Source of the DNA: an uncultured Planctomycetia bacterium
GTDB taxonomy: Bacteria > Omnitrophota > Gorgyraeia > 2-02-FULL-51-18
Length of the DNA: 64,000 nt
Direction of reading: 5' to 3'
Assembly: GCA_964642015.1 (NCBI GenBank)
Contig: CAZXLF010000001.1
Span: 43,946 to 107,945 of the forward strand
This document shows positions 4,811 through 48,471 of the stretch, in pieces. The translations under genes and the position numbers were made by a program. Below the pieces are notes generated by a model that was not told the DNA's origin, did not search any database, and saw only the letters and a program-made list of their open reading frames with translations. Each line of letters begins with the position of its first letter. Positions within the stretch are counted from its first letter, which is position 1.

Positions 4811-4817
4811 GGTTTGA

Positions 4818-5839: not shown

Positions 5840-6239
5840 TAAAGCAAAGCTCCGAACGTTTATAGCGCAACAGTATACAAAAAAGATAATGGCAAGTCAA
5901 CGCAGTTGGTTTTGATGGTTTTAGCGGAACGAAAAATTTTGGAATTTGTTGCAAAAGAGAATAAAAGCTAAGACAGGGCACGTAAAAAAGAGCATTTTCT
6001 ATCGCACAAGCCTTGACCACTATCTGGGTTCGTTCTTAGTGAATCGGAAAACTTGGATTTTTACAATAAAACACCTCAAATTTTTCAATTTAATATTTCA
6101 TAATATATTGAAATATAAAGAGTTATAGTTTATTTAAAGCGGTCCGAATATTTGTATTTTGACAGTATGGTCATGTATACTTTTGTTAAAATACGCTCAT
6201 GTTCATTTTGGTTCCACACTCTATAAATATTAATAGACT
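5840..6239. promoter_or_regulatory. AT-rich divergent intergenic region between the minus-strand nuo operon and the giant gene; promoters expected
   Basis: 400 bp of high AT content. It contains TTGACA (6159-6164), an extended -10-like TGtTAAAAT (6184-6192) and TATAAAT (6223-6229) only 11 nt upstream of the giant-gene ATG. No clear SD precedes that ATG. Confidence 0.3.
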
Positions 6240-6323
6240 ATGGCAAGAAAACACAAACAAATCATAAGATCCCTCTCTTTGCTGTTGGCGGTTTCTTTTT
6301 TTGCGTCGGAACTTGCTTATGCA
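6240..6323 (+). other. Sec-type signal peptide of the giant protein (MARKHKQIIRSLSLLLAVSFFASELAYA|AP)
   Basis: Basic n-region, hydrophobic h-region and an A-Y-A signal-peptidase I site. Confidence 0.6.
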
Positions 6324-9300
6324 GCACCTATTGATGCGCAGGCAGTGAGAGAAGTTCCGATACAAATCATCGCTCAAGATCCCACGCGTTTTGAAGCACC
6401 TGTTTCTTTTACAACTCTCAAGGAAATTCATAAAGGCAGCGAAAATACTTTGATCATTCATATTCAGGATGCGCATGCGAATTATAGCGGTCAGGAAAAT
6501 TTAGCTAACGCACTGGATGAGCTCATGACAAAGTACAAGATCAGTTTAGTTCTTGTCGAAGGCGGGACCAAAGACGATACGTTGACTCCCATTAAAAAAG
6601 TCGCATCACCCTTGGTTTGGAAAAAAGTTGCGAAGAAATTTCTTGGCGAGGGAAAGATCACAGGCGAAGAGTACCTTAATCTGATCTCTGATCATCCGAT
6701 GAAGATCATGGGGATCGAGGATAAAGCGCTTTATATGTCTAGCTTGAACGCTTATAAAGACCTGGCCGATAAAAGGGAAACAACCTTGGGCTATCTTAAG
6801 AAGATCCAAGCCGCAGTGGATAAAGTTAAGAAAAAAGTTTATCCAGTGGAACTTTTGGATTATGAGAAAGAAAAAAGTAAAACAAATACTGTGCTTAACG
6901 GAACACCGGCGTTCGAGAAAAATTTTGAGATTAATTTCAGGGGATTAATGAAACTGATTGCCGATATTCAAAATGCGGACAGCCATGGAGAGAATTTCCT
7001 GGCACCTTTTCCCGATCTTCAAAAATTAAAAGCCATTCAAGAAAAAGAGAGATCGATTGATTTTGACGCGGCCAATCTGGAGCAGGCGGCTTTGATAGAA
7101 GAGATCCAAAAACGAGGGGGAATTGAAGAGTTCAAAGATTATCTGAAGAAGCTTGGTCAGATGAAGGATCAAAGAGCTTGTCAATTTGCCTACTTTCAAA
7201 ATACTTTAAATATAGCCAAAAAAAAGGGGATCTCGATAGAAAAGTATCCCGATCTGATCATTTATGGCGAATACCTAAAGAATTTTCAAGAATTGGATTT
7301 AGACCTTGTGTTAGATCAGTTGGAGCGTGCCGAGGACCAGGTTTACGTAAGGCTTTTTCAGCGCAATGCCAAATTTCAGAACGACGCTCGCCTAGTCCGG
7401 TCAATAGACCGTTATATAGGTCTTCTTGATACTGCATATCGGATCAAGATGTCGACCAAGGAATTTAACCTCTTCAAAGTTAATGAACCGGATTTTACCA
7501 CTCCCAGTTATTTGGCTTTTCTAAATCGTAAGCTAGCCGAGTATGGATATTTTCAAGACCTGATCCCGTATCAAACAAAAGAGACAGGCAATCCGCTTGA
7601 AGAAGGAAAAAAAGCGTTGGAGGCGTTTTATGATTCCGTGAATCAAAGAGATATGGCATTTATCAAAAATACCGAAAGAATTTTGAAAAATGAAAACCAA
7701 CAAGTAGCGGTGCTTATTTCGGGAGGTTATCATACGCCGCATCTTAAGAAACTTTTCAAAGAAAAAAACTATTCCTACGCGGTCCTCACCCCTATCATTA
7801 CTTCTGAAACCGATCAGTCTAAATATGAAAAAATATTGCTCGAACCGATCAAAAAGGAATCTAAGGTTGTTGAGAATGTCCAAGGCGAGCGCAAGTCACA
7901 GGATAAATCGTTGAGCGATCTGGAGGAAGATTTGATCAAGCTTAAGAAGCAGTCTGATCAAGTCAGGCAAACGGAATTAGTGGAATCCGGTAGCCGACTG
8001 GCTGAGGTGTTGAAAGACATTGAGGCTAACGGAGCAGGTGAAGAAGCGGTTGCTGCGGCAAGTTTAAATCTTTTAAAAAATAATCCACGATCGGCAAGTG
8101 AGCCAGTTCCGGCTATGGCGGATACAAAACTCGCAAGCGCACCGCAAAATATTCCTTCCGGCGCACGTCTCTCATCTCAAAACGAAAATACCGAACGGCC
8201 AGACTCACGAGAGGTGAGAGGGACATTGCTTTTGGTTGAGAAAAGTTTTCTGTTGCCGAACTGGCTCGGTCTTTTTCTGACCAAAATACTGTTTCAATTC
8301 TATGCCAAGCGTAATTTTGGATTGATCAGGTGGAATACCAATACGGAGATTATCTGTCTGCCTTGGTCTGACCAGAAAATACGCGATACGCATCCAGAAT
8401 ATCATCGGAAGTTGTGGCAAGAATGGAAAGATGCGCACGGCCGCTATGACGATTGGAATGTGACGGTCAATCTGGTGAGCCGTTTCATGCCGACGCCTGC
8501 GGCAGTAGCGGTCTCGATGGAAGAAAAAAATATCAATGTTTTCATCAAAATGTCGCTATGGGATCGTCGAGATCTTTTTGGGCATATATTTGACAAAGCA
8601 GACGAATTTATCCAGCAAAGCGAATCTTCTCATGCCCAGGGTTCGCGGCTTGCGTTGAATCGTTTCAAGGCGCCTGTCTATATTGACGAGAAGGACTTTG
8701 ATAATGCGAACAGGTCATATCTTGATCGTCACCGAGATCAGTGGCAATGGATCCGAGAAAATATAATGCCGTACCTGATTGAACGGGCCCTAAAGAGGGT
8801 CCATGGATCTGAAAAACCAAGACTTGATGTGCTTGTGTTAGGCGCAAGCACCGGAGAAGAATTAGCTAGGACATTTTATGAAGTCACTACGGATCTTTCC
8901 GCCAGAGGTTATGATCCTAATCAGTGGATCTTGATGATTCATGGTTTTGATTCAGACCGGAATGTAGTTTCCGAAGGACAGAAAAGATTAAGAGGCCAGT
9001 CACCTTTCATTGGTGCGCGGCCCTTTCAAACAGAAGCGCAACTGGAGGATTATGCGGGGCGTGTCGTTTCACTGCTGAATCAATATCGTGAGAAAGTAGC
9101 AGAGAGTTTATTTTTGCACCAAAGAAATGTTCTGGATATCGCGCCGCTGAAGAATAGCTTCCCGAACGCGGACATTATTCTTGTGAATCATCTGATGAGG
9201 ATCTTGAAAAATAATCAGCGATTGGCGCTTATTCAGAATTTGAGTTTTGAATGGAAAGATGCGCTGCTTGCGATAGGTGATATGCCTAAATTCGAAAATG

Positions 9301-12300
9301 ATTGGCAGTCCCGAATGCAAAATCATATTTTGGAAAAATTGCCTCAGACCTCTACAAAAGAAACCCAGTATTTCTTTGGATTGCCGCAAGGCTATGTTGA
9401 AGAAAAAACTCATCCTGAGGGCGCGCGGTTAGCTGAGGAAAATAAGATACAATTTGTAACCGACAAAACTCAATATCCAAGACTGATCGTCAGTGTCGAA
9501 TCTTTAATAAGTCAATATGAAAGCGTTGACAAAAATGTCTCTGAAATGCTGCCAAATATTCAAAGCGATCTGCAAAACCCGCTTGCGGTATGGGTGGTCC
9601 GGGATGCTTTTAACCGCATCATCGGATTTAAAACTCTGAAAAAACCCCAATTTATCCAAGGCCTGACACAAGAAGCTCAAGATTTGATCAATGCGGGAGA
9701 AGGAATTGTTACCGGAGGATTTGTTGTGATGCCTGAAGCTCAAAGGCAAGGCCTTGGAAAACGTCTTATGGAGGAAAGCTTCCGGTACATTCAGGGTCTG
9801 GAGAAGCAAAATATACGCTACTATCTTGCCAGCATCGCATCTGACAATGCAGCATCATTCCGCGCTATTCACAGCGTTGCCGCTCAAATGGGTTTGACGA
9901 TGTACGGCCCATTCGTAAATGAAGGAAGCCGTCAATATGAATATTTGATAGATGTTTTTCCTGACAAAGCGCTTGGCGGACAAGCGGCCAATTTAATACA
10001 GCGTATGAATGCACTTCCGTCGAGTACAAAGGAAGCATGGGATCAGGCACAGCAAATAGCTGCTGGTAAAAGCGGCGGCTCCGCAACAGGCGCTCGTCTG
10101 ACCGGCACTTCAATCCAATGGGGAGACCAAGCGCCTATGCCTAATGCGGCTGCACACTCTTTGGCTTTTAAATCCGAAGATGAGATCGCCAAATTTATTC
10201 CCATCTGGCCTTTCGGTCCCCGAGTAACAGTCCGCAAAAATTCAGACACTCACATAGCGCTCTCCATTCGAGACAAGCGATTTAACATGATGACGATCGA
10301 ATTAAAACAAGATCCGTCAGATGAACATATGGTTTTTCTGGGGCATGGGCGGCCTGTTTATTCGGATCAGAGCTTATTACCTTCCGGGACGTCGACGGCA
10401 TCCTCAAATGCAGAGGCTTCAAAGCAGATTTTGTCACCTTTGATCAGAAATTGGATGAACAAATTTCTGCCCGATTGGTTGCTATCGAGAGGCTACAACA
10501 AGATCAAAGTTCAAATTCTATTTGATGATTCTCCGGAATTCTTTGATCGATTGGGCTTTAGAAGGCTGGACGACATGCATATGGTAAAAGACATCACACC
10601 TTCCCAAGGAGCTAGATTGGCGAAATCGACGATTGCGGGAGTGGAGTTGCCATTTGTTTTTTCCGATGCTGTCGGAGCCAATGGATTGTACGAGAGCATT
10701 ATATCGGATGCTAACGATGTGGCCGAGCAATTGCATAAATACATAGCCGAAACTTCCCGCACTAACCGAGAGATCGTGGATACTTCCACGTTAGCCATGA
10801 GTTCCGTAGCGCAAAGCGACCAAGTATTGCCGACGGTCTATATCGGAGATTTGCATGGAAGACTCGATGTTTTGTACGGCATTTTAAATGACGTGGTCGT
10901 CATTGATGGCAAAAAAATGAAAATCATCGAAGCGCTTTTAAACCGTCAGATTAAACTGCGTCAAGTGGGCGATAGTATCCACCCCGCCACAAGTAATAAT
11001 TATGAAAATAAAGAGGAACATTTAAGGAGTTTTGCGACTTACGTTTTTCTGATCACTTTGAAGAACCTTCGGCCAGATCTGGTGGATATTGTGATCGGTA
11101 ACCATGAAAATTCTGTGCTAAGCCGAGCGACTGTAGGTAAAAAAGTGCAGGACCGGTTGTTAAACTTAGGTGCATTTTTTAAAGAATCGATTGAGGATAG
11201 AAATAGCTGGCGAGGAAATGATTGGACGCAGATCCAATTCATGGACGACCAAAATCAAATGGTGACCTACAGCGCTGCCGAGACCGGCCAGCTATTGTAT
11301 GCCTTGTTTGCCAGAAGCGTAGAAGACCTCCCCGTCTATGTAAGGGATAAAACTTTTGACTCGACAATAGGAATGCTACACGCCGAAGTTCCATCAACAG
11401 ACACTGTTTTTACTTTGACTGATATGAAGGATGTATTGAGCAAGCCCTATTTGGAAGCGCATGGCATTGATCCTGATTATCTGAGGGACGCCCCTAATCA
11501 GCTTTATCAGCAGTTGCTATGGAACCGGAACTTTCAATATGACCCCCCGACAGGAGTGAAGTACTTAAACGCTTTTGCGGGTGATCCGCAAAAAGGAGCC
11601 GGGCTTATTTTTTCGGGCCACACACCTCCTTCGCATTTTTCTGATATGCCCGCAGAAGGAGTGTTGGTCTTGAAAGATCAGGCGGTCCCGCTTTTTGTCA
11701 CCATCAAAGATCCTCAAAGCGAAGCCAAACAGATCATTGGCGATGCCAGCGGAGATTACGACAGGGTCGGATACCTTTTGGTTGATGCCAGAAAAACTTT
11801 ACCATCTAATCCGCTCGATTTAAAAGCCCCTGATGATACTTCAGCTTTCAGAATTTTGGACCTTCAAGGCGCGTCTTATGTTTCAAGGCCTTTCGATATT
11901 GGCGCAGTACGCGCCGCAATTCCGGCATACGTCCCTACACCTGCCGATGCCAGGCAAGATCCGCGCATTTTTCGTGCGGGCACGCTTTGGTTCAAGATCC
12001 GGCTTCTAGGTGATGGTAAAATAATTTTGATCGACCCAGCTAGCAATGCTCCTTATGTTTCAACCGTCGCATCGGAAGTTTTCCCTGGCCATCCCTATCG
12101 AATAGGCAGAAATGTGGATTTTGAGGGCACGTTCCCCAATATCAATACTGTCTCCAGAACGCATGCGGAAATTATCAAGGATGGAGATGAATACAAGCTG
12201 GTGGATACCAATTCCAGCGCCGGAACTTTTGTAGGCGCTAAGCAGATCGTGAATCAAAATCCGGAAGTCTTGAATTTTGGCCCGCAGGGCGCCCGGTTGG

Positions 12301-15300
12301 CAATAGAACGGAATGAGAAAAGAGAAGATCTTGCTCGACGTCAAGCGGTGGACCGGATCATTGGTGATGTCACGGATTACATTAAATTCGAAAATGAAAT
12401 GAATAAGATCATCGATAAGATCAACCAGGGGATTCCGTTGAGCCAAACGGATGTGATCCGGTTGCAAGATAAATTAGCTTATCGTCTGCAGCTCAAAAAT
12501 TCTCTCGTGACGTTAAGAATAAAGGTGCATCAAGGCGATTATATCGTGGCTTTCAATCAACTCGGCCTTAAAACTCTGAACGATCTTCTCGGCACACCTG
12601 GCAATGACCGGGTCATTGCCAAGAGGCAGAATCTATTGATCAAGCTGATGACAGAAAATGGCTTGATTTCCTCTGGACGTAGCGAACGTTTAGAAAAAAA
12701 TTATAAGCAGGATAAATTCGTGATCCGGTCTTCAATCATCAGTAAACTCGGGATCGAAGAGGTCCAGAGAAGGTTGGATCTGGTATCAAAGGCTCTATCT
12801 GATCGGATGTCGAAATTTTTGATAGATGAGTACGGTAAAGAAAAAATGGTCAATTTTAAGTTTCAAACCTTGTATGGGATCAGCAATAAGGTTGAGAACG
12901 AAGATGACCAGGCCAAGATCACGTCAGACATTCAAGCGCTGCAGGCTTCAAAGATGGGCAGACGTCTTTTTGAAGAAAAACAAGTGAACGGTGAGCTTAT
13001 CTACGGAGCGAAGTTCAATCAAAATCAATTTGATGCACTGCAGCGCAGAGCTGCTTCTTTGGCGGAAGATTTAGGGATAACGCCTCGTCATTTTTTAAGC
13101 GAGATAGAAATGTCTGCGGTAAGAGGGATTTCCGAGGTGCAGATCCGGCAGGCGGTTTCAGACAAACGGATGCTCGAAAGAGATCTAAAGATAAAAACTT
13201 ACCTTGATATCATTGATCTGTTCGATTATCCGAAGACTTGGCCCGGGGCTGTCAGCGAGCGCACCGTTCGCGTGGATGAGATCCAGGCTTTGGTCGAGCT
13301 GTTTTTGAAAAATGTCAAACCGCGCGCGCCTCCGGACCAGCAGTGGTCAGTTGCAATACAAAAAGCTTTGGCTATTCTCAAAAGGAACTCAAAAAATCCT
13401 TCCATTACATCCGGAGAAGCGTTCCATGCTTATGCATCCGGGATCTCCGCCGCTGATCAGGAAAAAGGAAATGTCCACAATCATCGCTTTGTCGCCGTTG
13501 ACGTCATTGGATTTTGGGCGAGCATTCAAAGAAATCTGGGGAGAGCTCACGCGGCGTATTTTGATGCGATGCAACGAAATGCGCCGTCCGTTCAACGCCG
13601 TCAGGTACTTACTGACGAGGTATTGAAGGCTGACGACAAAGTGAAGAAGATGATCGCCGGTAAGATCAGACAGATCGACGGTTTCGTGAAGGCTGTCGGA
13701 GTTGAGCCTGAGAAAATGACATTGAACGACGGCTCTAAGGTATCAGCATTTTTCCAAGAAGGCGGCGACGAGATCGTTTTTATGATCCCGCCCAGTTTTG
13801 ATCTCAAGAAGACCAACGAACTTTTAGCCAAGATCCGTGCGCGTGGAATGGCCGCAGAAATCAGCTTTCAAGATCGTCCTGAACAGTCAACAGTGGCGCT
13901 CGGCCTTGCCCTTACCGAAATTAGAGCGGATGCTTTCGGAAGACCTTTCCAGAGCTCTCAAGCCGTTCAGGCGATCGATGCTTTTGTTAACGCCCAAAGC
14001 GCTGACGGATTGGCAAAGGAAATCGAAAAAGCGGGCGAGAAAGGTTTTGTTTCCTACGAGATCGTCAATCAGAATCAAAAAGCGAAACTTGTCCGCGAAG
14101 GAAAAATGACTGAGGGGAAGGACCGTGCATGGTTTGTTTATCGGCAAGCAGGCGCAGCCTCGCGGCGAGAGTTTTACGCAGATTACGCGAATAAAGTTCT
14201 AGCCGGAGCTCGTTTGGCATTCAAAGACTCCATGTCACAAGCGAATGAGCATGTCCAAAAAGCGCTTGAGATCATTAGAACAGCAGACCTGTTCTCAAGA
14301 ACGGATGTTGAAACTGCGCTAGAACAGATAGTTGAACAATTATCTCGAGTCGAGCAAATTCTTGCAGGCCAGAATGTTGATGAATCTGATCTGCTCCCAA
14401 TTCAGGCAAGACAAGATCTGGTGCAGGCCTTCTTGACCGCTATTTCGGTAATGAGAGACATCGATAAACTTACCGGGCTTTCGCTTGATCAGCGTTTGGA
14501 GCTTATCGGACAGTTAGCTAGAAGCGGATACAGCATTAATGATGCTTATAACGCTCTCTACGGAAGGCCAATAGGCGCTCGCCTGGCATCCCTGAGAGCG
14601 AAGTTGGTCGTTGCTTTTGCAGCTCTTGCAGGTGTCATTGCATTGATCTCCTTTGCGCCGAGACAGGCGCCCATCAAAGCCATAAAGCCTGCTCAGATCG
14701 AACGCATTGAGTCTAAACCTGCGCCTCAGCAGACAGAATCGCAAAAGACGATTACAGAAAAAGAACAGAAACCCGCAGACTTGCAAATATTGAAACAACA
14801 TGCGGAAGAACTTAAGAAACAATCCGATGATTTAAAGAAACAATCCAAAGTCCTTGAAAACAAAGCCATTTATCTCCAGAAAGAAAAAGAGCGGTTTCAA
14901 GAGAGTTTCAATTACCTTCAAACGGTTTATCTGCAGCAAATGCAAGTAAGCTGGTCTCTTGTCGGCGGGTTGAACCCAGAATCCAAGGTTGGGACAACGT
15001 TTGTTGATACGACCATCAAATTATTAGGAGGAGAAACTCTCAGAGTCCGTCAGGAACATGGCGTCTATCGTTTTCCAGAAGGATTTAACGTCCAAGATGT
15101 AAAAAGCAACGCAGCTTTTTCGCTGAATGAGAAAGGTATGATAACGGATCAATATGAAAATCTGGATAGCTTACCGGCTGAGATCCGTAAGGATCTGGAT
15201 GATATCAAGAAAGGATTTGCGTATCGCGGTCCGCAGTTCAGCGATCTGGCTTTGAAGCTGAATTCGGCTCTGGGTACTACCAATTTTAAAGCCAGTCATA

Positions 15301-18300
15301 TCCAGGAAATGCAGGGCCTTATCAAAGCCGGCTCATCTGTGGTTCAAGCTATTCAGAGCGTGGCCGATAAAGAGAGGATCACGATCAATACTGAAAATCT
15401 GAAGTCTGTGCCTGTCGAGCGTTTCGGAGCGTTGCTTCCGCACGCCGGCAGAGTCTATGCAAGGTATTTCGATTATATGATCGTTGATAAAAATCGCCAG
15501 ATTGTTGCGGCTTTTCGCAGAAAAAATTTGGAGAAAGGCGCCTCATTCAGAGATTTAGAAGTATTTCCCTCTTCTTTTAAAGATGAGAATCCGCTGCTTT
15601 TCGGAAGTTTTTTCAGCTATGACGAAAAATTTCCTGCTTCGATAGGGCGGACCCCGACGGATAAACGGGGTTATGAAATCGCCCAGAACAGCAATAATGA
15701 ATATCTTAAAACCTCTGAAGGAGTGCCTCTTTATTGGTTCAATGAGGATAAAGAAACGGGAGAGTTATCTGTATTAGACCGCGGCCGATACGCGCTAGTG
15801 TTCTTATCAGGAGTACGGCATCCGCTTATTCCGGATAAAAAAGGACCCATTAGCTATGATAACGGCACTCAGGTGACACATTTTAAAGTTTTGCCTGATT
15901 TATTTATCATCTCGGGATCACAAAGACTTCTTTGGACCAACCATTCAACTCTTGAAGGCCGAACAGTCGAGAGATATGAGAAGGCTTTGAGGGAGGGGGC
16001 GTGGTTTGCTCCTATAAAGTCCCGTAAGATGGCAGGGTGGAACGTACGTCCGCAGAATCAAGCTTTATACCCGTATTTTGAATCCCAAGAGAGCGACAAA
16101 GATAAGATCAAAGAAGAGACCGCTGAATTTGCGCGGAGAGAAGCCGAATTAAGACAGGCAATAGATAATGAGTCAAAAAAGCCTAATCCAGATTCTGAAA
16201 CATTGAAACTTCTGCAAAATGAGCTGAAAAGGCTAGGCACGCAGCATTTTATGATAGATGCAGATGGTTATATGCATGCAAGAACTCTGCCGTGGAAGCA
16301 TCTGCCGGGGGAGATGGATCGTATTGGGAATGAGCTCAGGGAAGTCGAGGGACAGAAAAAGGAAGCAGACGCTAACGAGGCAAAGATTAATGAACAGATT
16401 CAGGAGGCTTTGCAACAAATAGAAAAAATAGAAAAGGGCGCACTTCCTAATCCTTCACAAGTTGCTCCGGCCGGAGCGCGCCTTGCGGAAACACCAGGCT
16501 TCCTTTCTGAAAAATTGTTGGTCGAAGTAAAGAAAATAAATTCGCTCCGAGATCTCGATAATATCAATCAGTGGTTATCTTATGAAATCGCACAAAATCT
16601 GATCACCCCTGAACAGGTGGTAAATGCGTTGGCAAGTATTATCGATGATCATGGCAATGATGAACTCCGAGGGCCTTTTAAAGATATTGCTGATGCGGTT
16701 CAGAAATTGGTCAATGATCTGGAATCTGAGATGCCCGGATCTTTTAAAGATCAGTTGCACCGCATCTTGTTCAGCGATAAGAATTCGGTGAAAGAGATCA
16801 TGACTGTTATCAATCCGGATGGAATGCACATGAGGCCTTCTTATGGCGTAGCCCGATTATCATCAAAAATTAAAGATGAATTGAGTCTCGATGTTTATAT
16901 TCAAAATCTGAACAGGCATCAAAACGAGATAACGCATGCAAGCGAATCACTGTCAATGCAGGCTTTGGGAATTGAGCAGGGAGCGCAGATAAGGATCATC
17001 GTAACAAAGAGCGCTGATAAGCAATTATTGGCGAACGTTATTCAGATCATAAAAGATTTCCTTTTGGATGTCGCTGCACAACAAAATCCAGAGAGCCAAT
17101 TGGAGCCCTATCTAAATAGGATAAAAAATCTTGGCCAAACATCCAATAACGGCGCACGGCTTGCAGAGGCGGAGAACCAGGGAGCGATCTCCAAGGTAGT
17201 TCAATCTTTCTGGCGATCATATCGACGGGCTACTTATAAATTTTTACAAGCGCCGTTGCGCGTAGATGATCTGATCATTGCCGTCAACATCATGGATCTT
17301 GGCGCAGAGATCGAAAATGGCAGGGTGGTCACCAAAGACGCATTGAAAAAATTAAGGGAACTGATCCCTTCACTGAAGAAAATGGGCGCCGGTAAGGTTT
17401 ATATTTACGGTGGACTTTATCAGATGAGCGGTATTTCAAAAGGACTGCACTCAGACCCGGGTTTAAAACCCAGAACCGAGAATGGAGCCACTGTGGTCGC
17501 CGGCTATGACACCAAAAAAGAGACCGTAGACGGTATTGAATTCACCGATCGTTTTGGCAATCCTTTCTCAATTATGGGCATGGAAAATTTTAATCCTGAA
17601 CTTTCCAGCGGAAATGCCGAGCAGGATTACGCGAAAACCGTAGAGGCTCTGAAAAAAGAAGGCATTGAAGTTGTCGCGGATCTGGTTCCTTGGCTTTCGC
17701 CCAGCGCGATCAACGAGACGAATTACAAAGCAACATTTTATAGGGAGCTTAGCGGTGGATTGAATGACGAATTTCGAAGTGTGTCCGAAGAAAATAAAGT
17801 GAAATGGCTTGACGAAAAGGTCTTATCCAACAATCCTGGCTATGCCGCTGTTCGTATCAAAGAAAGAAATAATCAAGGCGCGCTTCAAGAAAGGGTCATT
17901 TTGGTCAAGCGTCTCGGGTTTTTTGGAATAGACAGCGGTGACCAAGTCATATTAAATCCTTTTCATCCGTGGACGCAGCAATATTATACGGATGCGGTCA
18001 ATAAGCAATTAAGTTTGGGAGTCAAAAATCTGCGCATTGATCTCGGCCATTTGGTCTTGAAGCGCCACATTCTCGGCTATTTTGATGAAATGCGAACAAA
18101 ATTATCCTCGGAAGGAAAAAGCATGGAAGATTGGCTCAGAGAAGCCGGTACTGATATCCAGCCTGGAGAAAGTTTTGACAGCTGGTTTCACAGATCTCCC
18201 GAAGTGTGGCGCGAAGTGATGGACAGGATCAGCGCCGATAAAACCCATGGCTATGATTATAAAGACATCAACCTCATCACTGAATCATATGATTCAAGTC

Positions 18301-39300: not shown

Positions 39301-42300
39301 AAACCCGTAAGACGCGTTTGGGCCGCAGCGGCATCTTATTCAGAGATGGTTTGCCGGTCGTTTTGGAAATAGGGAATACAGAATATTTGATCAGTCTAAA
39401 AGGCGCTGGCACTCCTGAAGCAGAATTTGTGATAGAAAATGGCGTGCTTGCAGGCGGGATGTCTAAATATCACGCTAACTATGAGATTAAAAACATGGAT
39501 TCAAGGCCGGATATCGTGGATCGCGTTCAGGCAGCAGGGAGTCTTTCGTTCAACGGCCGAGTGGCAAATTTACCTGTTCCATTCGATATGGGGCAGGCTG
39601 TTTCTTTTGTCCCAGGCAGTCTTCGTTCATCGTTCATGAATAATAAATCTCTGCCTCAGATCAAAACTGAAGAGCAAGCCAGACAGATTGCGCAAGAGAT
39701 CGGGCGACTTGTAGTGGAAGGAAAGATTCCGCTGACGCACGCTGAAAATTTCATCACCGTAGATAAGGGATCTAAGTTGGTGATCACGGATTACTCAGAC
39801 ATTCATCTTATTGAGGATTTTCCGTTGGTGTTGGAAGGGCGCGAATACAGTCCGATCGAAGCCATCAGAGCCAGTGTGCAAACGATTACGGAATTACCAA
39901 TGTATCAAGATTATGGCCCTGCCTATTTTAACGTGTTTCTGGAAGGATTGGCGGAAGGCCTGGCCGAGAGTGGGAAATTGAGCGAAGACCAACGAAAGCA
40001 GCTTTTTGCTTCGAGGAATTTTGAACAACTAGCAGATTTTCTCTGGACGAACTATTTGGTCACAGATTATGTGAGATCGCGGAAAGAAAGAGCATGGATC
40101 CCTTCGGCATTTTCACCTTTCCAACCCAAAGAAGGCGAAGATATTATTCAGGGGTATATCAAGTACACGCAGGGTCAGGCTCGAGCGGTATACTCCGCTC
40201 TAAAAGACCGCGAAAGATCTTTGGAGTTATTACCTAAGAATGAATTGGTCGAGCAGGAGCTTCAAAGGACCCAGAGCGATATTCAGGCGTTTGAGTTCAC
40301 GAATTTCGAAATAAGGAAGATCATCGCTTTGATGCTGAAAAAGATGACGCAGAATGAAGTATTCGCGAGAAATCTTCTTGAGAATCCCGAATTCATGGTT
40401 TTTGCGCTTTCGACTTACTATGGATCGGACTACAGAAGATTTATTACGGGCTATTTGAGCAATCCTAATTACCTGAATTTACTTAAGGCTGACATCGGTT
40501 ACCGCCTATCGACTAGCAATGGCGCTCGTTTAGCGGACGAAAATAGTGCGGCCTACGAACTTTTGTCCGCAATCGGTTTGCGGGATGTCCGTTTCTTCAG
40601 CAAGATCGGCATTGATCTTCGAGAAGGTCCTGAAGGAACGGCGATCCAACGAATCCGCATTCCCGAACAAACTTTCAAGGCGCCGATTCCCGAAGGGTTG
40701 GACATCTTGCGGCAAGAGCTGGCTGATACGAGGGAATTCGACCTGATCTACAATGATGAAGCGGAAGTGATCGCGATATTTCCTGCTCCTACCGATGAAC
40801 TGAAAAAGGTCTTGGAGAAATCGAAAGTCCAGCCTCAATATTTTGACTTGAGTCATTTTAATTTTGAGATCCCTAGGCTTGATGATAAAGAAGCGGAGAA
40901 AAAATGGTCCAATTTTGCAAAGAAGTGGGAGAGAGACCAAAAGGCGATCAGTGAATATAAGAGGCAATATGGAGGCGAATTTTCTTTTGGTGATGCCGGA
41001 AGTCGTTCCAGACCGTTCGTCTACGCAGCTCTGGACCAGCAAACCGGAGAGATGGATGCCAGAGAATTCCCTCCGAGCAATTTCAGCTATATTCTTGAAA
41101 CGTCTAAAAAAGCGGCCGGCAAACATCAGATCATATTCCCGGTTTATCCGACCGTTTATTCACCGGCGGGCGGGAATCTGGCCAGTGATATTCATTATTT
41201 TACCGCGATCTCTAAAGATGAAAAGTTCAACCTGAAAGAAAACGACGAATTATTAGTTGTAGGGCCCGGTTCCGGCATCGATGCGTGGGCAGCTTCGTTC
41301 AAGACGAAAAATAAGATCTACGCTATTGGGATAAGCCCGTTAGAAATTGCGAATTTGCGTGCGACGCTTAAGATAGCCGGTGCGGATTTTGAGGCGACGG
41401 CTCACGATAATATTATTTCAAGTGAAGGCAAACCCGCGTTTGAAAAACGTTTCGATAAGGTGATGTGGAATGCGCCTTATTACGATGATCTTGTTAAACA
41501 GCCGAGACAGTTCAAGCATTATTGGGACGGAGACTTTGAAGCCCGCTCACTCAGACGTTTCGCAGAAGGATTGCCCAAAGTTGTTAAGCCTGGCGCCGAC
41601 AGCAGAGTGCTTTTATGGGGCAGGGCTTATCTTATTCAGCCCGTCGCTTCTTTGCAATACCCTCACAGTGGTTCCGTCGATCTTTTTGAGGAGACATTGA
41701 GGACAGAAGGTCAATTCAACGTTGTTACGAGAAGTCTTTCAGATATAAGAAGCAAGTTCAACTATCGTTTAAATGTGTCCAAAGAGTACTTTTTGGATCA
41801 CGCCGCCGGCGAACGTGTCGGCGCCTCAACGGCTATCTATGTGGTCTCCGGTTTTGAAAATACAACAAGTCAACCATCATCTTTGGCAGCTCAGGCAGTT
41901 GAGGTGAAGACAGATCAAGCGCTGAGAAGCTTGAATACTTTGGCGGATCTGTTGAACAGCGGGTACCGGACTTCAGCGGCTATTCCGCCCGGCACACTAA
42001 TCAAACCAATAAGCGATCTTGAGCCGGATATCACGGAGCCGATATTCCGTATCGCAGAAACTTTTGATAATCCAAACAAAGCTGACCAGGTTTCTCGCAT
42101 TGATCGGGCTGTCGCGTCGATCAATAGAGAGATCAAATCTTTGGGTTTGGCTTTACGTTTTGACGCGGGAGCCGGGAAACCATTTATTGTTGAAAGGTCA
42201 AGCACCGCATCATCGCCTCAAGGCACACGGCTTGCGGGCGGACTTGCTCCGCGTGACGAAGGTTTAGAGCGGCATAATGCGGATAAAAGAAAGTATTTGG

Positions 42301-45300
42301 CGAACACGGATAATGTTGCTGCGGCATTGCTAAAATATATAGCAGGCGATCGTGACAAAGTGACCCGTATCGTCTATCCGGCAGCGCATTACGATCAATT
42401 GGCTGTATTGAGTTTGGTCAAGCTGTTTCCGAATGTGCGTCAAGTCGTGGTCATCTCGCTTTATGGTGTGAATGGTCCTGAGGGTTTAAAAGATCTTCAA
42501 AAGCGCTGGACGCAAGGTTTCTTTGAGAGAGCCGAGCGGATAGGATTGAACGCAGAAGAACTTAAGAAGAACATCGAAATCAAGATCGTCGATCAGGATT
42601 ATAACCTCGCCGCAGAAGTTGCTGCCACACGCCCCCCGGAGGGTTTGACGGCCATTATTGATAAATATCCCGGGAGAGATTCCTCTCTAAGGGCAGACCC
42701 TCGTTTTCGCCGATCCATATTGAGAGATACTAGGCCCGGAGACCTGATCTTTTCGTTGAGAGATAATCTAGTGCCCGGTTTAAATTGGTCGGACAAGCCT
42801 ATCGCAGAGAACCTGAGCGTCCCATTTCTTTATGAATCACAGAACAAGTGGAGCATTACCAGATTTTCTGAAAAAGATTATGAAACGCCGGCCGGCGCCC
42901 GTCTTGCGCAAGCAAAACCTCGCTATCTTCATTGGGATAACGTGATGCGTGATCTGGTCGTGCAGGATACGGATCTGCAGGGACAATTAGTGGCGGAGCT
43001 TGAAAAGGAAAAAGCGCTTTATGATAGGAGCGTTCGTGAGGGGATTCCTTATTCAAAGAAGAAGCTTTTTGTCATCGGCGCAGGAGCCGGCCGCGCACTT
43101 TATGACTTATGGACGCGTTACGGAGCGTTTCTTGAGTTTACCGTTATTAACAAGGAACCGCTTGAAGAGATCAATGCTCCTGAAAATGTTTTTCTTGATT
43201 CGGTTTTAAGCGCTTATCATGGTAAAGGCAGGTCAGATGAAGAGATTGCGCGATCCGTTAAAGAATTCCGTTCTTTCTACGCGCAAAATGCAAAAGCTTT
43301 AGATATAGAAAGCAAAGCAGTTAACGGAAAGTATCATTATGTATTGCTTTCATCGGCCGTGATGCCTTATCTGCAAAATAAACTTAAAACGGTCAATAAT
43401 CTAAAAAATATGCTTTATGCGGGCGGAACCGCTTTTGTTTCGGACTTCGAAGGCGTTGTTTTTGATGATAGATCATTTACTCCAGGTTCGTTTTTCGCGT
43501 CGTTGAATCAGCAAGAAGCCGTTTTGTTGGGGCTTGAACGACCGCAGTACAATCTGTTGGAAGGAAAAACGCCGGCGCTTATCGTGAAAAATCTCAAACC
43601 AAATGAAGACTTGCCCGTGCCGAATTTAGTTGAAGCGAGAAAATTGGAAGAACCCGGTTTTCCCGCACATTATGATTCTATTTACTCGGTCCGTTCTGCG
43701 CAATCGCTTTTGGGATTTGTTTCTTCGGGAGCACGGTTGGCTTCGGCAGAACAAGAGGCGACCGTAACGGCGGAACAAGGCATTCATTTCAGACCGCTTG
43801 CGGATATTGCGCAAGTGGCTCAATGGTTGAAACAAGACAATGGAGTCACTCTTTTCATCAGGAAAGCCGATCAAGCCAAATTTTCGCAGGCCGAAAGCAT
43901 GGTGGCGATGCTGGCATTTGGCGCAAATAAGGACGAAAAGATCATCGTAAGGGGTGAAGCGCCAGAAGGTGTTTCCGGGGAAAAATTAAGCGAAGCCGTT
44001 GAGGTTTTATCTGCGCTGATTCGATCGAAAGATATCGGAAGCATGGCGATCGACATGTTTCGGTTCAACTACAAACAGAGGATATTGGAAAATGCTCGAA
44101 ATGAATCGGGCGCGCGGCTTTCCGCAGAGGATACTAGGTCAGTCGTTCTAAATAAGGCGCTGCGCAATTTGGTCCAGCATGTGATCAATAGCAGAGCCCA
44201 AGCGCTGCAGACTTACTCCAATCCCGGCATTAAACGAGCGTCGGATGAAATATCCGCTGAAATACTTAGCCAAGTCAATGAGGCTCGTGTTCAACTGGCA
44301 GATCTTGCCGAGGTCTTTAGGCCGGCATCACGAAGGCCGCTATTAATTTTAAGGACCGAAGGCGAACCGCCGGCCATTTTTGTCAAGGGGCGCACGCCGG
44401 GGTTTGAAGGCAAAACCGGCGAAGAAATTTCCAGAGCAGAGCTGAACCGAGCGGTTGACTTACAGGCTGTTGAAGAGATATTGAGCCAGGGTCTTTCGGA
44501 ATTCGATAAAACGGCGGAGCCTTTGATGGCCGAGCTCCAAACAAAACCAGCCGATCTCACAGATGCGAGAGGTCATGCATTTGTGTTAGTGGACATCTTG
44601 GTGAATATTGTCGATCGCATCAATCAGCACACGACTGATCGGCAGAGCGGGCGATCTTTTATTTCACAGTCTGTCCAGGATGTTCTAAATGATGAGTTAA
44701 ACGCCCAAATCGCGCCGGAGGTGCCGAGGTCTTTTATTTTCAAAATAGACTCTGCCGGTGTGAAAAATGCGTCACAGGAAATGAGCGATAAGCATCAACA
44801 TCGGCTACAGAACAAAAATTGGAAAATAGTTGGTACGGGTATTTCAGGTTTGATCTCTGAGGAACAGGTGGAGACGTCGATGCCTTTATTAACCACATGT
44901 TTGACATGTCCTGCGGTCTATATTTATAACACAGAAACCAGGGAGACATACTATGCACACTCGCTTGGTTATGATTTTAGAGTTTTGCGGGCGACGTTAA
45001 ATGATGCGAAAGAGCGTTTTCAGAAGAACAAAGATAAAGTGGTGGTGTTCGTAGGTGGTAATACATTAACGACTGTTGCTGGGGTGGGATGGACAGAATC
45101 AACTTTGAAAGAAAGACAGGCTATTGTGAAGGAAATTTCAGACGCTGGATTTAAGCCGATCGTGGCTTTTCCGCATTTCTCTGGATTAGCGATAGAGCCT
45201 TATTTCGATGCGGCCGATGGTATCTTGATTATTCAAGAATACAATGCTTTCACGGGGCCGGGATACGGCTTGTCCGAAGATAGGTTTTTGGAATTTTTGC

Positions 45301-48300
45301 GGTCAGGTGCACGGCTTTCGCAAAGCGATATTACGCTTCAACAAGAACTCCGGAATTTCCATGTAGAGTCAAACGATAAAAAAGTGGATTATTCTAAAGT
45401 AAGTCCCGAAGCGACTTGGGTCATGCACGGAATAAGAGACGTAGAACGAGGCGTGATCATCACGGATATGGCTCAATCGCCTGAAGTCTCGTTGAAATAT
45501 CCTTTTGGAGAAAATTTACCGGTTGTAGCGCCGCCTGGTGAGAATTCGGCCGGAGTTTTTCTCAATATCGCTGCGATAAACAATATTTCACAGCCGGTCG
45601 TTATTAAAAAGTTTCTCAGCGGCTCGACGAACGCATTCATCCGGCGGGAAATCATCAATTCCCAAGTGTTGGATCGTTTAGGTGTGGGTCCTCGTTTTTA
45701 TGGCGTCGTCAGAAATGGTTCAGGAGCGATTGTTGGGTATGCCATGCAAATAGTGAAAGGTGAGTATGTGAATGGGTTATTGGTGATCGGCAAAAAACAT
45801 CCAGATGTTATCGAGATCCGGAATAGACTCGAGGGGATCGGTCTGTCATCAGTCACAGATTATATTCATACACCTTCGGACCGTTATATTGTGATCGACG
45901 CGGGAAGTGTGGAACCGCTGGATGTTTTTGACAATGGAAAATTCGAAGAATTCATTAGAGAATCTTCCGGCGCCCGACTGTCTTCGCAGAAGAAATGGTA
46001 TCAGGAGGAAGTTCACGAAAAGCTCGACTCGAAACTTGTGATGAGCAATTTGGAAAGGATCCGCGCGATCTTGGGAACGATCCTGCATCAAATCAGCAAT
46101 CCTGATCAATGGCTCGAAAAAGAGCATTTGGAACCGGTAGTGATCCGTCAATATGGCCGTGCGATTAAGAGGTTCAACGACGTGGTTTTAAACAAAAAGC
46201 ACATGACAGTGTTGCAACTCGAAAAAGAATACAAACATCTTCATGCGCTATTGGGTGAGAAGGGCTATATTCGTAGCCCGGGCGATTATGTCTCTGTCAA
46301 TGAGCAGGATGTGAAGGAGTTATTTGAGTATCTTTTTTCTGAAAGCACCGAGCAAAAGATCAAAGTAGATGAGGCAGGCGCGATTGATGTGGCGGCACAC
46401 GTCTATGTGACCCTTGTGAATCTCCAGCCTTTTTATGACGGGAATAAACGGACAGCAAGCCTCATTATGAATTATGTCTTGATGAAGTCTGGATACACAC
46501 CATTCATTCTTAATGAAGACAATGTCGTGCGCTATGCGGAGATCGTATACCCGGTCAATGAAGAAAATAAGATCTCAGAAAGTGCATTCAGAGAATTTTT
46601 GGAAAGTCAGGTTCAGATCTCAGGCGCGCGGTTAGCAGCCGCACCGATTCATGACAATGAAGCACAAAGGTTGAGAGACTATTTAACTCAAGCACATTCT
46701 GTTTCGACGGTCAATTTGGCCCACACGATCGATAAAAATAATGTTTTGCAGGCATTCCATAACGGTCAAACGTTGGAATTGGCGCTCAATGATGTTTACA
46801 GGCGCGGGCAAAATAATTACTTATTGATCCGCGAAGCGTTGGATCAGATCTCCGGTACGCTTGCGGGTTTTCCGGAAGAAAAGCAGGTGATCTTGGAGCT
46901 TCTCACGAATGCTTTCGCGCATGGTAATAAGCAAAATCGGAACTTGCCGATATTTGTCCGCGCGGATTTTGGCGTGTCCGGTGAGATCCGGAATATCGAA
47001 GTGTTTGATACAAAATCGAATGCAAATGTGAGCCCGCAAGAGATACAAGCCGTAAAAGACGCTGGTATTGCATTTGCAGGCGAAGGTATTTCGAATATCG
47101 CTCAGCATGGGTTCTTTTATCAAAGGCAGGATTTGAAGGGAGATAATATTGTGATCGGGACCAAAGCCACTGCGACAAGGCGAGAGCAAACGGCTCCAGC
47201 TAAAGTTGATTCAAGTGCAAAACCGGAAGAAGAATCCGCTTCGAGCTTTGGGCAAACTTTTGGTGCAAGGTTGGTCAGTAAAACCAGCGCTTCACCATCC
47301 GAAGAGATATCGCATCCTGTCATTCGAAATTTATTCCTGGGCATTTTGTTGGAACGTGCCGAAAAGGAAGCGGGCGAAAAGCTGAATTTATTGGGCGATC
47401 AGGGCATTTTGACATTTACAGTGCAGCCGCTGAAAGGTCGCGAAAATGAATACGCACAGATCAATTTTCTCGCGGGAGTCGATGCGGCGTCGCCTGTGGT
47501 CCATTCCGAGATCATCACCCAAGCCGAACTGAATGCGTTCAGAGAAGCGCAGAAGAAGATCGAATTGGGCAGATCTTTACAAAAGACGGAAGTGGCCAAG
47601 ACAGAACTTTTATCCAAAATATCTCAAACACCCGCTGTTCAATTACTCTCTTCCGAAAATGAGATTAAGGCGGTTACTTTTGAAGAAAACCGCCAGATGC
47701 GCGTCTTCGACAATGCCGCGAATGTCATTTTGTCCAAAATCGGCAAATCTTCTCTTGAGGGTATGCTTGAGGTTAATGTGGATAAATTGAACGTGGCCAA
47801 TGCATCCGAAGTCACAAAGACGTTTGAACAGAATGTCGAGATTCTGGCCATTGCGATCACCGCCATTAAATCTGACGCGCGTTACAAAGATGTTAAGCTC
47901 CATTTTTACAGCGCTTCTAAAAACGAGGCTTTAATGGCTCATGTCAGCTCGATTACTAATCTTTACCGGTATCAATCAAGCGAAAATGAGGTGCGTGCTG
48001 CGCTGAAGGTCAGGATTACCGGCTTGGATGATATCGTCAAAGACATCGGTTATGCCAACATCGCCAATGCCGAAAAAGGTTATTTGCTGCCGATCAGGCC
48101 GATCGTTCATTACGCTATTTATCTTTTGAGTCTTAAGAATCTTTCGCAGGCGACTCCTTTGGATGTACGCGAATCGGTGATCCAGGAAGTCCGCCGCTTG
48201 TCGGGCAATTTCACGGACAAGGACCTCGAGAAAGAGAATATATTGGGCTTTGCGCTTGGTATCATCAATGATGTCAATAAGAGCGTTGCGGACAGATTTA

Positions 48301-48383: not shown

Positions 48384-48392
48384 GGCCTTTCC

Positions 48393-48421
48393 TTTACAAA
48401 CCAAACCGAGTGACCTATAAT
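48393..48421 (+). promoter_or_regulatory. Sigma70-like promoter for plus-strand nuo operon: TTTACA -17 bp- TATAAT
   Basis: TTTACA at 48393-48398 and TATAAT at 48416-48421, separated by a 17-bp spacer. It lies 50 nt upstream of the nuoA ATG. Confidence 0.5.
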
Positions 48422-48430
48422 GCCTCTTTT

Positions 48431-48439: not shown

Positions 48440-48471
48440 AGTTCTTGTAATAGATTATTTTCAGGGGACTT

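Follow-up and report, generated by a model that had tools for sequence, protein, structure and literature searches.

The window analysed here is a 64,000-nt stretch of metagenomic DNA (GCA_964642015.1, contig CAZXLF010000001.1, forward strand, positions 43,946-107,945) from the lineage Omnitrophota; Gorgyraeia; 2-02-FULL-51-18. A giant gene lies in it between two divergently oriented nuo operons (Table 1), and its product of 14,047 amino acid residues (aa) is divided by 35 copies of a pentapeptide, mostly GARLA, into 36 modules (M1-M36, the units between motif sites). The frame opens at 6237 with the ATG at 6240, and translation of 6240..48383 on the plus strand ends at a single terminal stop. 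The preliminary description of this DNA had claimed an uninterrupted frame of 42,144 nt and 35 motif sites at individually listed nucleotide and residue positions; the frame was borne out, and all of the positions were exact. Below, L0xx denotes loci and P0xxx related proteins, and giants with GARLA-like motifs are called type 1 and those with RSExR motifs type 2.

Since independent assemblies agree with the window and syntenic giant open reading frames (ORFs) occur in many other genome bins, the giant ORF is genuine and no assembly artefact. The per-run Logan assemblies of SRR12313480, SRR12313477 and SRR12313478 match window positions 3627-13266 and 48168-62215 at 99.9-100% identity. Syntenic giant ORFs with the same motif were found in more than 12 other genome bins, which answers the call of the preliminary description for a search for orthologous giant genes and speaks, together with the assemblies, against the false fusion that it had named as a danger. 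The flanking NuoD has homologues in 80 loci at 66-85% identity; most of these loci are titled Omnitrophota genome bins, several seem to bear mislabelled names, and RIFCSPHIGHO2_02_FULL_51_18 is among the closest. In at least 13 of the 80 loci, a giant ORF runs off the locus edge and ends just upstream of nuoA, as in the window.

Pentapeptide punctuation between modules

A regular expression search for G[AT]RL followed by any residue over the whole protein returned exactly 35 sites, namely 27 GARLA, 5 GARLS and one each of GARLT, GTRLA and GARLV. From the composition of the protein itself, 0.04 GARLA and 0.48 GARL would be expected by chance, against 27 and 34 observed. Apart from the motif, no 4-6-mer occurs more than five times in the protein, and outside giant ORFs the motif is found at roughly the chance level (0.86 million residues of six-frame ORFs). 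Three near-copies, two GSRLA and one GVRLA, lie beyond the 35 sites, and GSRL[AS] acts as a junction in relatives too. Position 5 is always a small residue; at the last junction, V or I recurs at this position among relatives. The flanks had been described as otherwise unrelated, and so they are, save for a preference for S/A at -1 and P/S at -2 in a logo of 102 sites.

Selection on the motif acts at the peptide level and the motif is no DNA repeat, since the third codon positions are near random, TRF detected no tandem repeats within 6240-48383 and Rfam had no match anywhere in the window. The third positions of motif codons 2-5 hold only 0.03-0.32 bits, Arg and Leu are each encoded by six codons, and the neighbouring nucleotides are unconserved. 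The earlier statement that the codons vary among the copies holds, with the qualification that the Gly codon is GGC in 24 of the 35 sites against 10.5 expected and is never GGG. This excess of GGC may reflect codon-pair context, common descent of the junctions or microhomology in module shuffling.

Related loci use the same pentapeptide or a variant of it, and the choice of variant runs throughout each genome. GARL[AS] occurs at 8 sites within 2,366 aa of L025 and at 6 sites each in L021 and L015. GARMA occurs at 8 sites in L023, which has no GARL at all, and is also used by L004; AARLA is the variant of L020 and L024, and L017 has GARTA and GARVA at junctions aligned with GARLS of the window. 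Searched exhaustively by HMMER, M33-M36 led to 265 proteins, many of them of 2-7.8 thousand residues (kaa), in which the match boundaries are module boundaries. Many of these relatives without GARLA carry another recurrent pentapeptide, either R[SA]E[VMLIA]R (119 sites in 10 proteins) or SAGLE (8 sites in P0006).

Module content and order are wholly different between genomes, and single modules recur as motif-bounded units. M29 corresponds to L003 1360-1584 and M33 to L015 646-875, with both ends on motifs. The Fic module is flanked by GARLS and GARLA in the window, by RAEVR, RSEVR or RSEMR in P0007, P0010 and P0057, and by SAGLE and AAGLE in P0006, and its register is identical in all of them: the first conserved Trp comes 1-4 residues after the leading motif, and the trailing motif stands 2-6 residues past the last conserved helix. 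For 13 near-full-length module homologies, the projected ends fall no more than 15 aa from a motif in 10 of 13 cases at each end, at a median distance of 2-3 aa; in the random-position control, 8.6% fall within 15 aa and the median is 117 aa. Since homologous modules carry unrelated pentapeptides at the same junctions and move as motif-bounded units, the motif lies outside any repeated fold, contrary to a possibility that the preliminary description had set against its own reading. These results show that the pentapeptide is a peptide-level, lineage-specific punctuation between the modules of secreted Omnitrophota giants, and they uphold the earlier proposal of a linear recognition motif at the junctions.

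Some motif copies stand in tandem, 10-35 aa apart, as in P0048 (aa 588/605/615), P0151 (aa 556/573/598), the ORF of L026 (aa 264/282/315) and the window (aa 10256/10284). They often follow directly on the TIKI-like domain described below, and the resulting mini-modules, which are below domain size, may serve as spacers, provide redundancy of sites or be set free as peptides. P0062 (MFC1645998.1, Omnitrophota, 6,224 aa) contains SSSP[VAI] 20 times against 0.14 expected, which may be a fourth type of punctuation or Ser/Pro-rich linkers; unlike the other giants, P0062 is not Cys-poor (26 Cys).

Modules and their boundaries

Searches of Pfam and of PDB sequences recognised a domain in about 11 modules, representing about 10 distinct domain families, together with weak P-loop matches, and left most modules without annotation (Table 1). 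The statement of the preliminary description that each interval holds a different complete domain can be checked only in part. Three pairs of modules, M5/M26, M18/M30 and M9/M31, are paralogous, the last being the HPr pair detected by Pfam. Both M5 and M26 combine Metallophos and FHA domains. The 127-aa module had been read as a single HPr-like domain, and the HPr match of M31 confirms it. In five related giants that were searched, the modules include LOG-like, PMI, sigma-70 region 4, Glu-dehydrogenase-like and HEAT domains.

The junctions coincide with natural protein termini. The HPr domain of M31 begins almost immediately after its junction and spans nearly the whole profile. Residue 17 of the M12 module aligns with residue 12 of TTHA0252, a free-standing RNase, so that the M12 junction lies where a natural protein begins. 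In L026, a winged-helix-like module of 80 aa extends exactly from motif to motif. M8 begins, shortly after its junction, with a strong hydrophobic helix that looks like an N-terminal signal anchor of this module; apart from the signal peptide, it is the one strong transmembrane helix in the whole protein. M15, which resembles enzyme I (EI) of the phosphotransferase system (PTS), is homologous to L003 410-1325, which lies between the L003 motif sites at 359 and 1338.

Cys is strongly depleted, with 7 of 14,047 residues (aa 314, 706, 6956, 10103, 10104, 12887 and 12890), and relatives are likewise depleted. Since the sole Cys of the EI-like M15 is the equivalent of the catalytic Cys502, Cys seems to be retained only where the protein cannot do without it. 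Of the remaining Cys, some pair up as CC or CxxC, and the rest occur singly in the TIKI-like and CheR-like modules. The giant is a true representative of a family of Omnitrophota proteins that are giant, modular and Cys-poor.

The C-terminal ends of M32, M33 and M34 (window 45240-45305, 45910-45968 and 46560-46622) are alike in a short helix, F-x-E-F-[LI]-[RE], that leads up to the junction: ...DRFLEFLRS precedes GARLS, ...GKFEEFIRESS precedes GARLS and ...SAFREFLESQVQIS precedes GARLA. This helix is present too in L015, L017 and the homologues of the Fic module, and may be a common C-terminal cap for some modules. In the neighbouring operons, the minus-strand set contains a fused nuoC-nuoD gene, and the plus-strand set, which includes nuoE/F/G, has a gene for a tetratricopeptide repeat (TPR) protein between nuoC and nuoD.

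Table 1 Features of the giant gene and its neighbours in the 64,000-nt window.
Feature	Position (nt)	Strand	Remarks
nuo operon	1064-5839	-	
Fused nuoC-nuoD gene	3173-4900	-	575 aa
Giant ORF	6240..48383	+	14,047 aa then stop; no internal stop; 5' 7 kb and 3' end matched in independent assemblies
Sec-type signal peptide, predicted	6240..6323	+	aa 1-28, MARKHKQIIRSLSLLLAVSFFASELAYA followed by AP; hydrophobic segment aa 8-26; putative cleavage position
TIKI/TraB/EreA-superfamily domain, candidate processing protease	6402..7874	+	aa 55-545; large helical insert
D77-A78-H79 (QDAH), candidate catalytic motif	6468..6476	+	invariant; end of model strand E17-23; corresponds to RRSP E3900-x-H3902 (PMC6254334)
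E107-G108, candidate catalytic Glu	6558..6563	+	invariant; 28 residues past H79
R470-D471, TIKI conserved basic residue	7647..7652	+	invariant; cf. RRSP R4001 (PMC6254334)
G495-G496-Y497-H498, putative second catalytic His motif (GxxH)	7722..7733	+	G, G and H invariant; 28 residues past R470
GSRLA, extra junction right after TIKI domain	7989..8003	+	aa 584; aligns with L021 junction; low pLDDT region
GARLS junction	8160..8174	+	aa 641; pLDDT ~30, coil
GSRLA, extra junction before CheR-like domain	8640..8654	+	aa 801
CheR-like S-adenosylmethionine (SAM) methyltransferase domain (M2, weak)	8727..9296	+	Pfam E 1e-3, below cut-off
GARLA junction	9420..9434	+	aa 1061
GNAT acetyltransferase domain (M3)	9516..9857	+	E 4e-7; module homologous to P0106 1938-2138, there flanked by RSExR
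GARLT junction	10089..10103	+	aa 1284
GARLA junction	10608..10622	+	aa 1457
FHA domain, C-terminal end of M5	12096..12275	+	E 3e-10; M5 paralogue of M26
GARLA junction	12288..12302	+	aa 2017
GARLA junction	14205..14219	+	aa 2656
GARLA junction	14574..14588	+	aa 2779
Strong hydrophobic helix (M8)	14604..14660	+	aa 2789-2807; mean Kyte-Doolittle hydropathy 2.45 over 19 aa; 7 aa past junction
GARLA junction	16473..16487	+	aa 3412
HPr domain (M9)	16794..17054	+	E 2e-8
GARLA junction	17151..17165	+	aa 3638
GARLA junction	19833..19847	+	aa 4532
GARLA junction	20502..20516	+	aa 4755
Metallo-beta-lactamase / beta-CASP / RMMBL ribonuclease domain (M12)	20559..21806	+	Pfam; 2ycb E 3e-39
GARLA junction	22836..22850	+	aa 5533
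GARLA junction	23598..23612	+	aa 5787
GARLA junction	24717..24731	+	aa 6160
PTS enzyme I-like phosphoenolpyruvate (PEP)-utilising domain (M15)	26184..27236	+	equivalents of EI His189 and Cys502 kept; GFCGEIAG aligned to GMCGELAG
GARLA junction	27981..27995	+	aa 7248
GARLA junction	29232..29246	+	aa 7665
GARLA junction	30147..30161	+	aa 7970
SAM methyltransferase-like domain (M18, weak)	30648..31040	+	Pfam; paralogue of M30
GARLA junction	31335..31349	+	aa 8366
GARLA junction	31749..31763	+	aa 8504
GARLA junction	32541..32555	+	aa 8768
GARLS junction	33393..33407	+	aa 9052
GARLA junction	34188..34202	+	aa 9317
GARLA junction	35205..35219	+	aa 9656
GARLA junction	36135..36149	+	aa 9966
GVRLA near-copy	37005..37019	+	aa 10256; next junction 28 aa further on
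GARLA junction	37089..37103	+	aa 10284
Calcineurin-like phosphoesterase domain (M26)	37260..37907	+	E 8e-7
FHA domain, C-terminal end of M26	38709..38882	+	E 5e-18
GARLA junction	38901..38915	+	aa 10888
GARLA junction	40521..40535	+	aa 11428
GTRLA junction	42222..42236	+	aa 11995; aligns with GARLA of L003
GARLA junction	42894..42908	+	aa 12219; aligns with GARLA of L003
GARLA junction	43728..43742	+	aa 12497
HPr domain (M31)	43749..44024	+	E 3e-9; profile positions 2-80 of 81; starts 3 aa past junction
GARLS junction	44109..44123	+	aa 12624
GARLS junction	45306..45320	+	aa 13023; aligns with GARLS of L015, GARTA of L017
GARLS junction	45969..45983	+	aa 13244; aligns with GARLV of L015, GARVA of L017; RSExR/SAGLE sites in Fic-module homologues
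Fic domain (M34)	46224..46481	+	E 9e-10; PDB match FICD; whole module conserved in 27 long proteins
GARLA junction	46623..46637	+	aa 13462; RAEVR, RSEVR or AAGLE at same position in homologues
GARLV junction, last	47262..47276	+	aa 13675
Conserved C-terminal module (M36)	47274..48380	+	always last in family; ends ...KAIGTAA; no Pfam/PDB match
nuo operon	48472-57428	+	
TPR protein gene	49832-50863	+	343 aa

Family frame and the TIKI-like N-terminal domain

Judged by sequence, the family has a common frame that consists of a Sec-type signal peptide, an N-terminal TIKI/TraB/EreA-superfamily domain, a variable series of unrelated modules, both enzymes and binding domains, and a conserved C-terminal module. 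Full-length relatives of 2.5-7.8 kaa have the same frame at both ends. Relatives with gene calls that extend to the N-terminus begin with such a signal peptide, and its n/h/c pattern and ...YA/AP site recur in P0048, P0019, P0051 and P0015. A scan of GTDB species-representative genome contigs found no relative of M12-M15, which places the window's own genome outside these representatives, and single-sequence searches with a 1,456-aa query or with M36 returned no homologues, as the word index used does not reach the family from single sequences.

The last module is conserved across the family at about 240-410 aa, and profile searches against PDB and Pfam, the latter run on each of 15 members, returned only noise for it. 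All 15 syntenic giants and most long relatives (P0007, P0008, P0012 and others) end in -x-[A/S]-Ala, with the terminal Ala invariant among the syntenic giants (window 48360-48380, ...KAIGTAA before the stop), and a conserved [KR][IV][DP]W..[LF]..[YF] pattern lies about 25 residues ahead of this end. In L017, L024 and P0024, a motif copy stands 5-9 aa ahead of the stop (GARLAVGAAA). The conserved -AA tail may be a C-terminal signal.

The N-terminal module matched no curated family model above threshold. The sub-threshold Pfam matches of individual members all belong to the Tiki superfamily (DUF5694, E 0.02; ChaN, E 0.06; Erythro_esteras, E 0.009; range 0.01-0.06), and a profile search against PDB sequences gave no superfamily member; its matches, such as Mediator subunit 31, were spurious and came from the helical insert only. 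The assignment was settled by a fold search. The AlphaFold2 model of the domain, computed from a 46-sequence alignment of Omnitrophota homologues gathered with a 16-sequence TIKI alignment, has a predicted local distance difference test score (pLDDT) of 90.7 and a predicted template modelling score of 0.84, and consists of a parallel-sheet core with a helical insert of about 300 residues.

D77-A78-H79, Q85, E107, R470-D471 and G495-G496-x-H498 are invariant in the alignment of 16 diverse members. In RRSP, H3902 and E3930 are 28 residues apart, the same as H79 and E107, and R4001 and H4030 are 29 apart against 28 here (PMC6254334). On this model, the N-terminal module is a TIKI-superfamily hydrolase domain with the TIKI alpha/beta fold, a 2His/2Glu-type set and the conserved basic residue, and its sequence marks it as a new, divergent family inside the superfamily. 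The preliminary description had found no recognisable protease domain, a statement that gives way to this predicted hydrolase domain with an intact catalytic set. The domain is N-terminal in 22 family members, including all 19 of the type-1 and type-2 proteins with gene calls that reach the N-terminus.

The first junction of the family members lies 90-130 aa downstream of GGxH. In the AlphaFold2 model of aa 55-660, the tail with GSRLA584 and GARLS641 has pLDDT values of 30-59, with no gain in confidence of the kind that a docked substrate would show. These low values carry no information on docking and are consistent only with a flexible, non-globular linker at the first two junctions, where the expectation of exposed linkers was checked. 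The residues beside the catalytic motifs differ consistently between the types, with QDAHxNxSGQ and GGYHTx[HN]L in type 1 and QDAHx[IV]P[DE]AQ and GGFH[AT]xG in type 2 (window aa 74-90 and 490-505 and homologues). They may be specificity determinants, a comparison that phylogeny confounds.

Two arrangements depart from the single long chain. L087 236-3945 and L088 108-3817 (JGI 3300027835 and 3300000571; 6 contigs) hold a minimal version of the family, split over two ORFs with a 16-nt overlap. The first ORF, of 618 aa, has a signal peptide, the TIKI-like domain and tandem GSRLA/GSRVV/GARMA; the second, of 622 aa, has one GARMS, ends in ...VWTSA and has no signal peptide of its own. This split could be a frameshift, either programmed or in a pseudogene. 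In L086 10001-21794 (GCA_016177405.1, JACOVG010000021.1), the gene of a free-standing 597-aa TIKI-like protein with its own signal peptide precedes a giant ORF by 27 nt. This giant ORF, at least 3,324 aa long, likewise starts with a signal peptide, and no pentapeptide punctuation was detectable in it; upstream are genes for sugar uptake and GH94.

Proposed cleavage at the junctions and alternative readings

Since all sites of a genome switch together and unrelated motifs sit at the same junctions elsewhere, one recognition factor per genome would seem to read every junction. The most economical mechanism would be site-specific proteolysis: an endoprotease acting at the motif would release about 36-39 separate products, and the TIKI-like domain may cut in cis or on sister chains after export, by analogy with TIKI and RRSP, which are site-specific endopeptidases (PMC6254334; PMC8191133). 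We regard cleavage of some kind, by a trans-acting protease included, as probable. We lean, with less assurance, towards the fuller reading that the giant is a secreted polyprotein cut at the motif, with the TIKI-like domain as candidate protease. The domain is the best candidate for this protease, although a tentative one, and, as matters stand, no bacterial protein is a stronger candidate than the giant for a polyprotein that has defined cutting sites and may carry its own protease.

The scissile bond is most likely Leu-Ala/Ser, since position 5 is small, as is typical of P1', the residue after RSExR is also small (A/T/S/N/G) and SAGLE has Leu in the fourth position, before its Glu. TIKI itself is said to cut a Leu-Ala bond in Wnt3a. 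A cut between Arg and Leu (GAR/L) is a conceivable alternative, since Arg varies least of the five residues and L017 has Thr or Val in place of Leu. The junction peptide named for a reporter of maltose-binding protein and green fluorescent protein (MBP-GFP) is IRESSGARLSSQKK.

Several points weigh against the polyprotein reading. The scissile bond is one that we infer from residue preferences. The first acidic residue of the catalytic set is Asp instead of Glu. P0053, P0033, P0032 and L086, the last as a separate gene, have the TIKI-like domain without detectable punctuation, and the SAGLE-type P0006 is punctuated yet has no TIKI-like domain, so the link between domain and motif, which is confounded by shared ancestry, is not one-to-one. 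Besides proteases, the TIKI superfamily takes in esterases (Ere), the haem-binding ChaN and inactive proteins (PMT). With only 1-6 aa between the motif and the domain cores, the linkers are short, and the mini-modules of 10-35 aa between tandem motifs would be odd products. Finally, enzymes of a cytoplasmic type, which use ATP, SAM, acetyl-CoA or PEP, stand behind a Sec signal peptide; this mismatch of compartments may point to delivery into another cell.

It is rather unlikely that the cutting is left to a separately encoded bacterial protease or to a protease of a host or prey, while the TIKI-like domain has another task, such as attacking a target protein or ester or processing no more than the N- or C-terminal frame. 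The punctuated P0006 without the domain and the unpunctuated members with it fit such an arrangement, as does the separate secreted TIKI-like protein beside the unpunctuated giant of L086, and TIKI-family effectors such as RRSP and HopBA1 act on host proteins (PMC6254334). However, type-1 and type-2 proteins have no other invariant catalytic module than the TIKI-like domain, and the 64-kb window has no protease gene, its flanks being nuo operons. Nor is there another protease domain in the giant or in five related giants: no peptidase family was detected in any of the 36 modules (Pfam, E<=0.01) or in the unannotated modules at E<=2, none in PDB sequence searches of the whole protein, and none by family search in the five relatives, where C80, C39 and S8 are absent as they are from the giant.

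We also think it unlikely that the motif stays uncut and serves either as a docking element read along the intact chain, for export, a chaperone or anchoring, or as a conserved hinge that insulates module folding. Short linkers would suit this role, tandem copies 10-35 aa apart fit binding sites as well as cleavage sites, and the published view of such giants is that of membrane-associated single polypeptides (10.64898/2026.06.07.730766). A passive hinge, however, needs neither five near-invariant residues nor a genome-wide switch to GARMA, AARLA, RSExR or SAGLE; the signal-anchor-like helix of M8 would make most sense at a free N-terminus, and the modules match complete free-standing proteins. 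No system of export or of chaperones is known to us to recognise an internal pentapeptide at intervals of 120-1,100 aa.

A signal in the nucleic acid, with the 15-nt junction as a site of recombination and shuffling or of RNA processing and the conserved peptide as a by-product, is very improbable. The GGC codons make GGCGC over-represented, and modules are shuffled between genomes at the junctions; against this, the third positions of codons 2-5 are near random, the flanking nucleotides unconserved and the repeat and Rfam searches empty, which also led us to reject a DNA repeat or RNA element as such, and the lineage variants are conservative at the level of the amino acid (L to M, A to S).

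Autoprocessing as in MARTX toxins, where an inositol-phosphate-activated C80 domain cuts after Leu between effectors inside a eukaryotic cell, is hardly credible here, although the preliminary description had proposed a link to the cysteine protease domain (CPD) of MARTX and TcdB. The CPD prefers Leu at P1 and Ala or Ser at P1'. Like MARTX, the giant is Cys-poor and appears to be an array of exchangeable, effector-like enzyme modules bounded by ...L/A or ...L/S. MARTX proteins (the Vibrio RtxA family) have C80, glycine-rich A/B/C repeats at both termini and a type I secretion system (T1SS), the last with a C-terminal signal, dedicated genes nearby and no N-terminal signal peptide. The giant lacks C80, the repeats and a T1SS architecture and carries a Sec signal peptide: no module has a C80 match even at E<=2, nor have the relatives, no repeat family was matched in Pfam, its Cys number only seven, and no ABC, membrane fusion protein (MFP) or TolC genes lie in the nuo flanks within the window. 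The CPD needs P1 Leu alone, while five positions are conserved at the junctions of the giant, and the position that corresponds to this Leu is Thr or Val in L017 and Arg in other lineages. The TIKI-like domain is one optional effector in MARTX but belongs to the conserved N-terminal frame in the giant, and MARTX proteins meet a eukaryotic host, whereas the giant's bacterium has no known one. Last, a false fusion of many genes through an assembly or frame error has practically no standing, since beyond the metagenomic origin of the contig no point in its favour was found, a 42-kb frame cannot stay open by chance, and the assemblies matching 9.6 kb at the 5' end and the 3' end, the syntenic giants with the motif and the full-length relatives with the same frame contradict it.

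Other known processes fit the junctions poorly and were rejected. No NPGP-like sequence is present for 2A-like skipping. [SA]-G-A before R would fit the -3/-1 rule of signal peptidase I, but an h-region is lacking and RSExR is incompatible with it. Double-glycine processing by C39 conflicts with the absence of C39, with the lack of hydrophobic periodicity upstream of G-A in the 102-site logo and with AARLA, which violates the -2 Gly rule. Self-cleaving modules (intein, GPS, SEA) do not agree with the unrelated flanks, nor internal translation starts with the lack of Met or a start context past the junctions.

The polyprotein reading, in which the TIKI-like domain cuts at the motif, has parallels and contrasts among known proteins. 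Compared with the TIKI endopeptidases (the Wnt proteases TIKI1/2, RRSP and TraB/PrgY), the giant's domain has the helical insert splitting the halves of the catalytic core and Asp in place of the first Glu; the similarity is marginal, and its proposed substrate would be its own polypeptide. Viral polyproteins, with the sites of picornavirus 3C, coronavirus Mpro and alphavirus nsP2, likewise have one ORF, unrelated units, a short consensus with a small P1', lineage-specific consensus changes that occur together and a protease encoded within, which in the giant is a candidate one. The giant differs in being cellular and chromosomal, 3-6 times longer than the largest of them, with 35-38 junctions and a candidate protease from a family not used by viruses. 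RgpA, Kgp and HagA of Porphyromonas gingivalis are secreted polyproteins cut at defined residues into several domains by their own N-terminal protease domain; they differ from the giant in a C25 cysteine protease that cuts after a single Arg or Lys, in a few adhesin domains, in export by the type IX secretion system and in far smaller size.

Among the Omnitrophota giants called multi-enzyme, the protein falls into class 1 by phylum, a length of at least 10 kaa, many distinct Pfam domains of which none prevails, and a signal peptide, a transmembrane helix or both (Nielsen & Lui 2026, 10.64898/2026.06.07.730766). These giants and the Archaeovorins share with it methyltransferase, GNAT and other domains, a signal peptide, poorly conserved sequence and suspected processing; the present protein differs from the published Omnitrophota giants in having few transmembrane helices and no SecA-like or dockerin domains. 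West-Roberts et al. (10.1101/2023.11.21.568195) suspect that Omnitrophota giants are cleaved, point to C39 and S8 domains, which are absent from this giant, give the cleavage points as unknown, and name this gap as what kept such proteins from being dissected by informatics. Neither the junction motif nor a TIKI-like domain is mentioned by Nielsen & Lui, West-Roberts et al. or Seymour et al., and a full-text literature search for polyprotein together with Omnitrophota returned nothing relevant.

The motif makes it testable whether bacterial giants of 10-150 kaa are single chains or many products. As punctuation, it provides an explicit segmentation rule, with 36-39 units here, which can be transferred to hundreds of related giants once the lineage pentapeptide is identified; structure prediction, annotation and proteomic searches therefore become tractable. 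The comparative evidence extends the observation to a general rule with several motif types and to a testable hypothesis of protease-site pairing. It is possible, though doubtful, that these giants form a new class of secreted polyproteins, in which dozens of enzyme or effector modules are joined behind one signal peptide and released by a new family of highly sequence-specific TIKI-fold endopeptidases as their first module, and in which the protease and the lineage pentapeptide (GARLA, RSEVR, SAGLE) co-evolve. If cleavage occurs, polyprotein expression, a viral hallmark, would be in large-scale use among cellular life as well; a new branch of autoprocessing enzymes would be added to the TIKI superfamily, and the co-evolving pairs of protease and five-residue site would be orthogonal tools like the tobacco etch virus (TEV) protease. 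The finding also raises the question of why Fic, GNAT, methyltransferases, EI/HPr and an RNase stand behind a Sec signal in ultra-small, possibly host-dependent bacteria, and one reading is that they may form an effector arsenal delivered into another cell.

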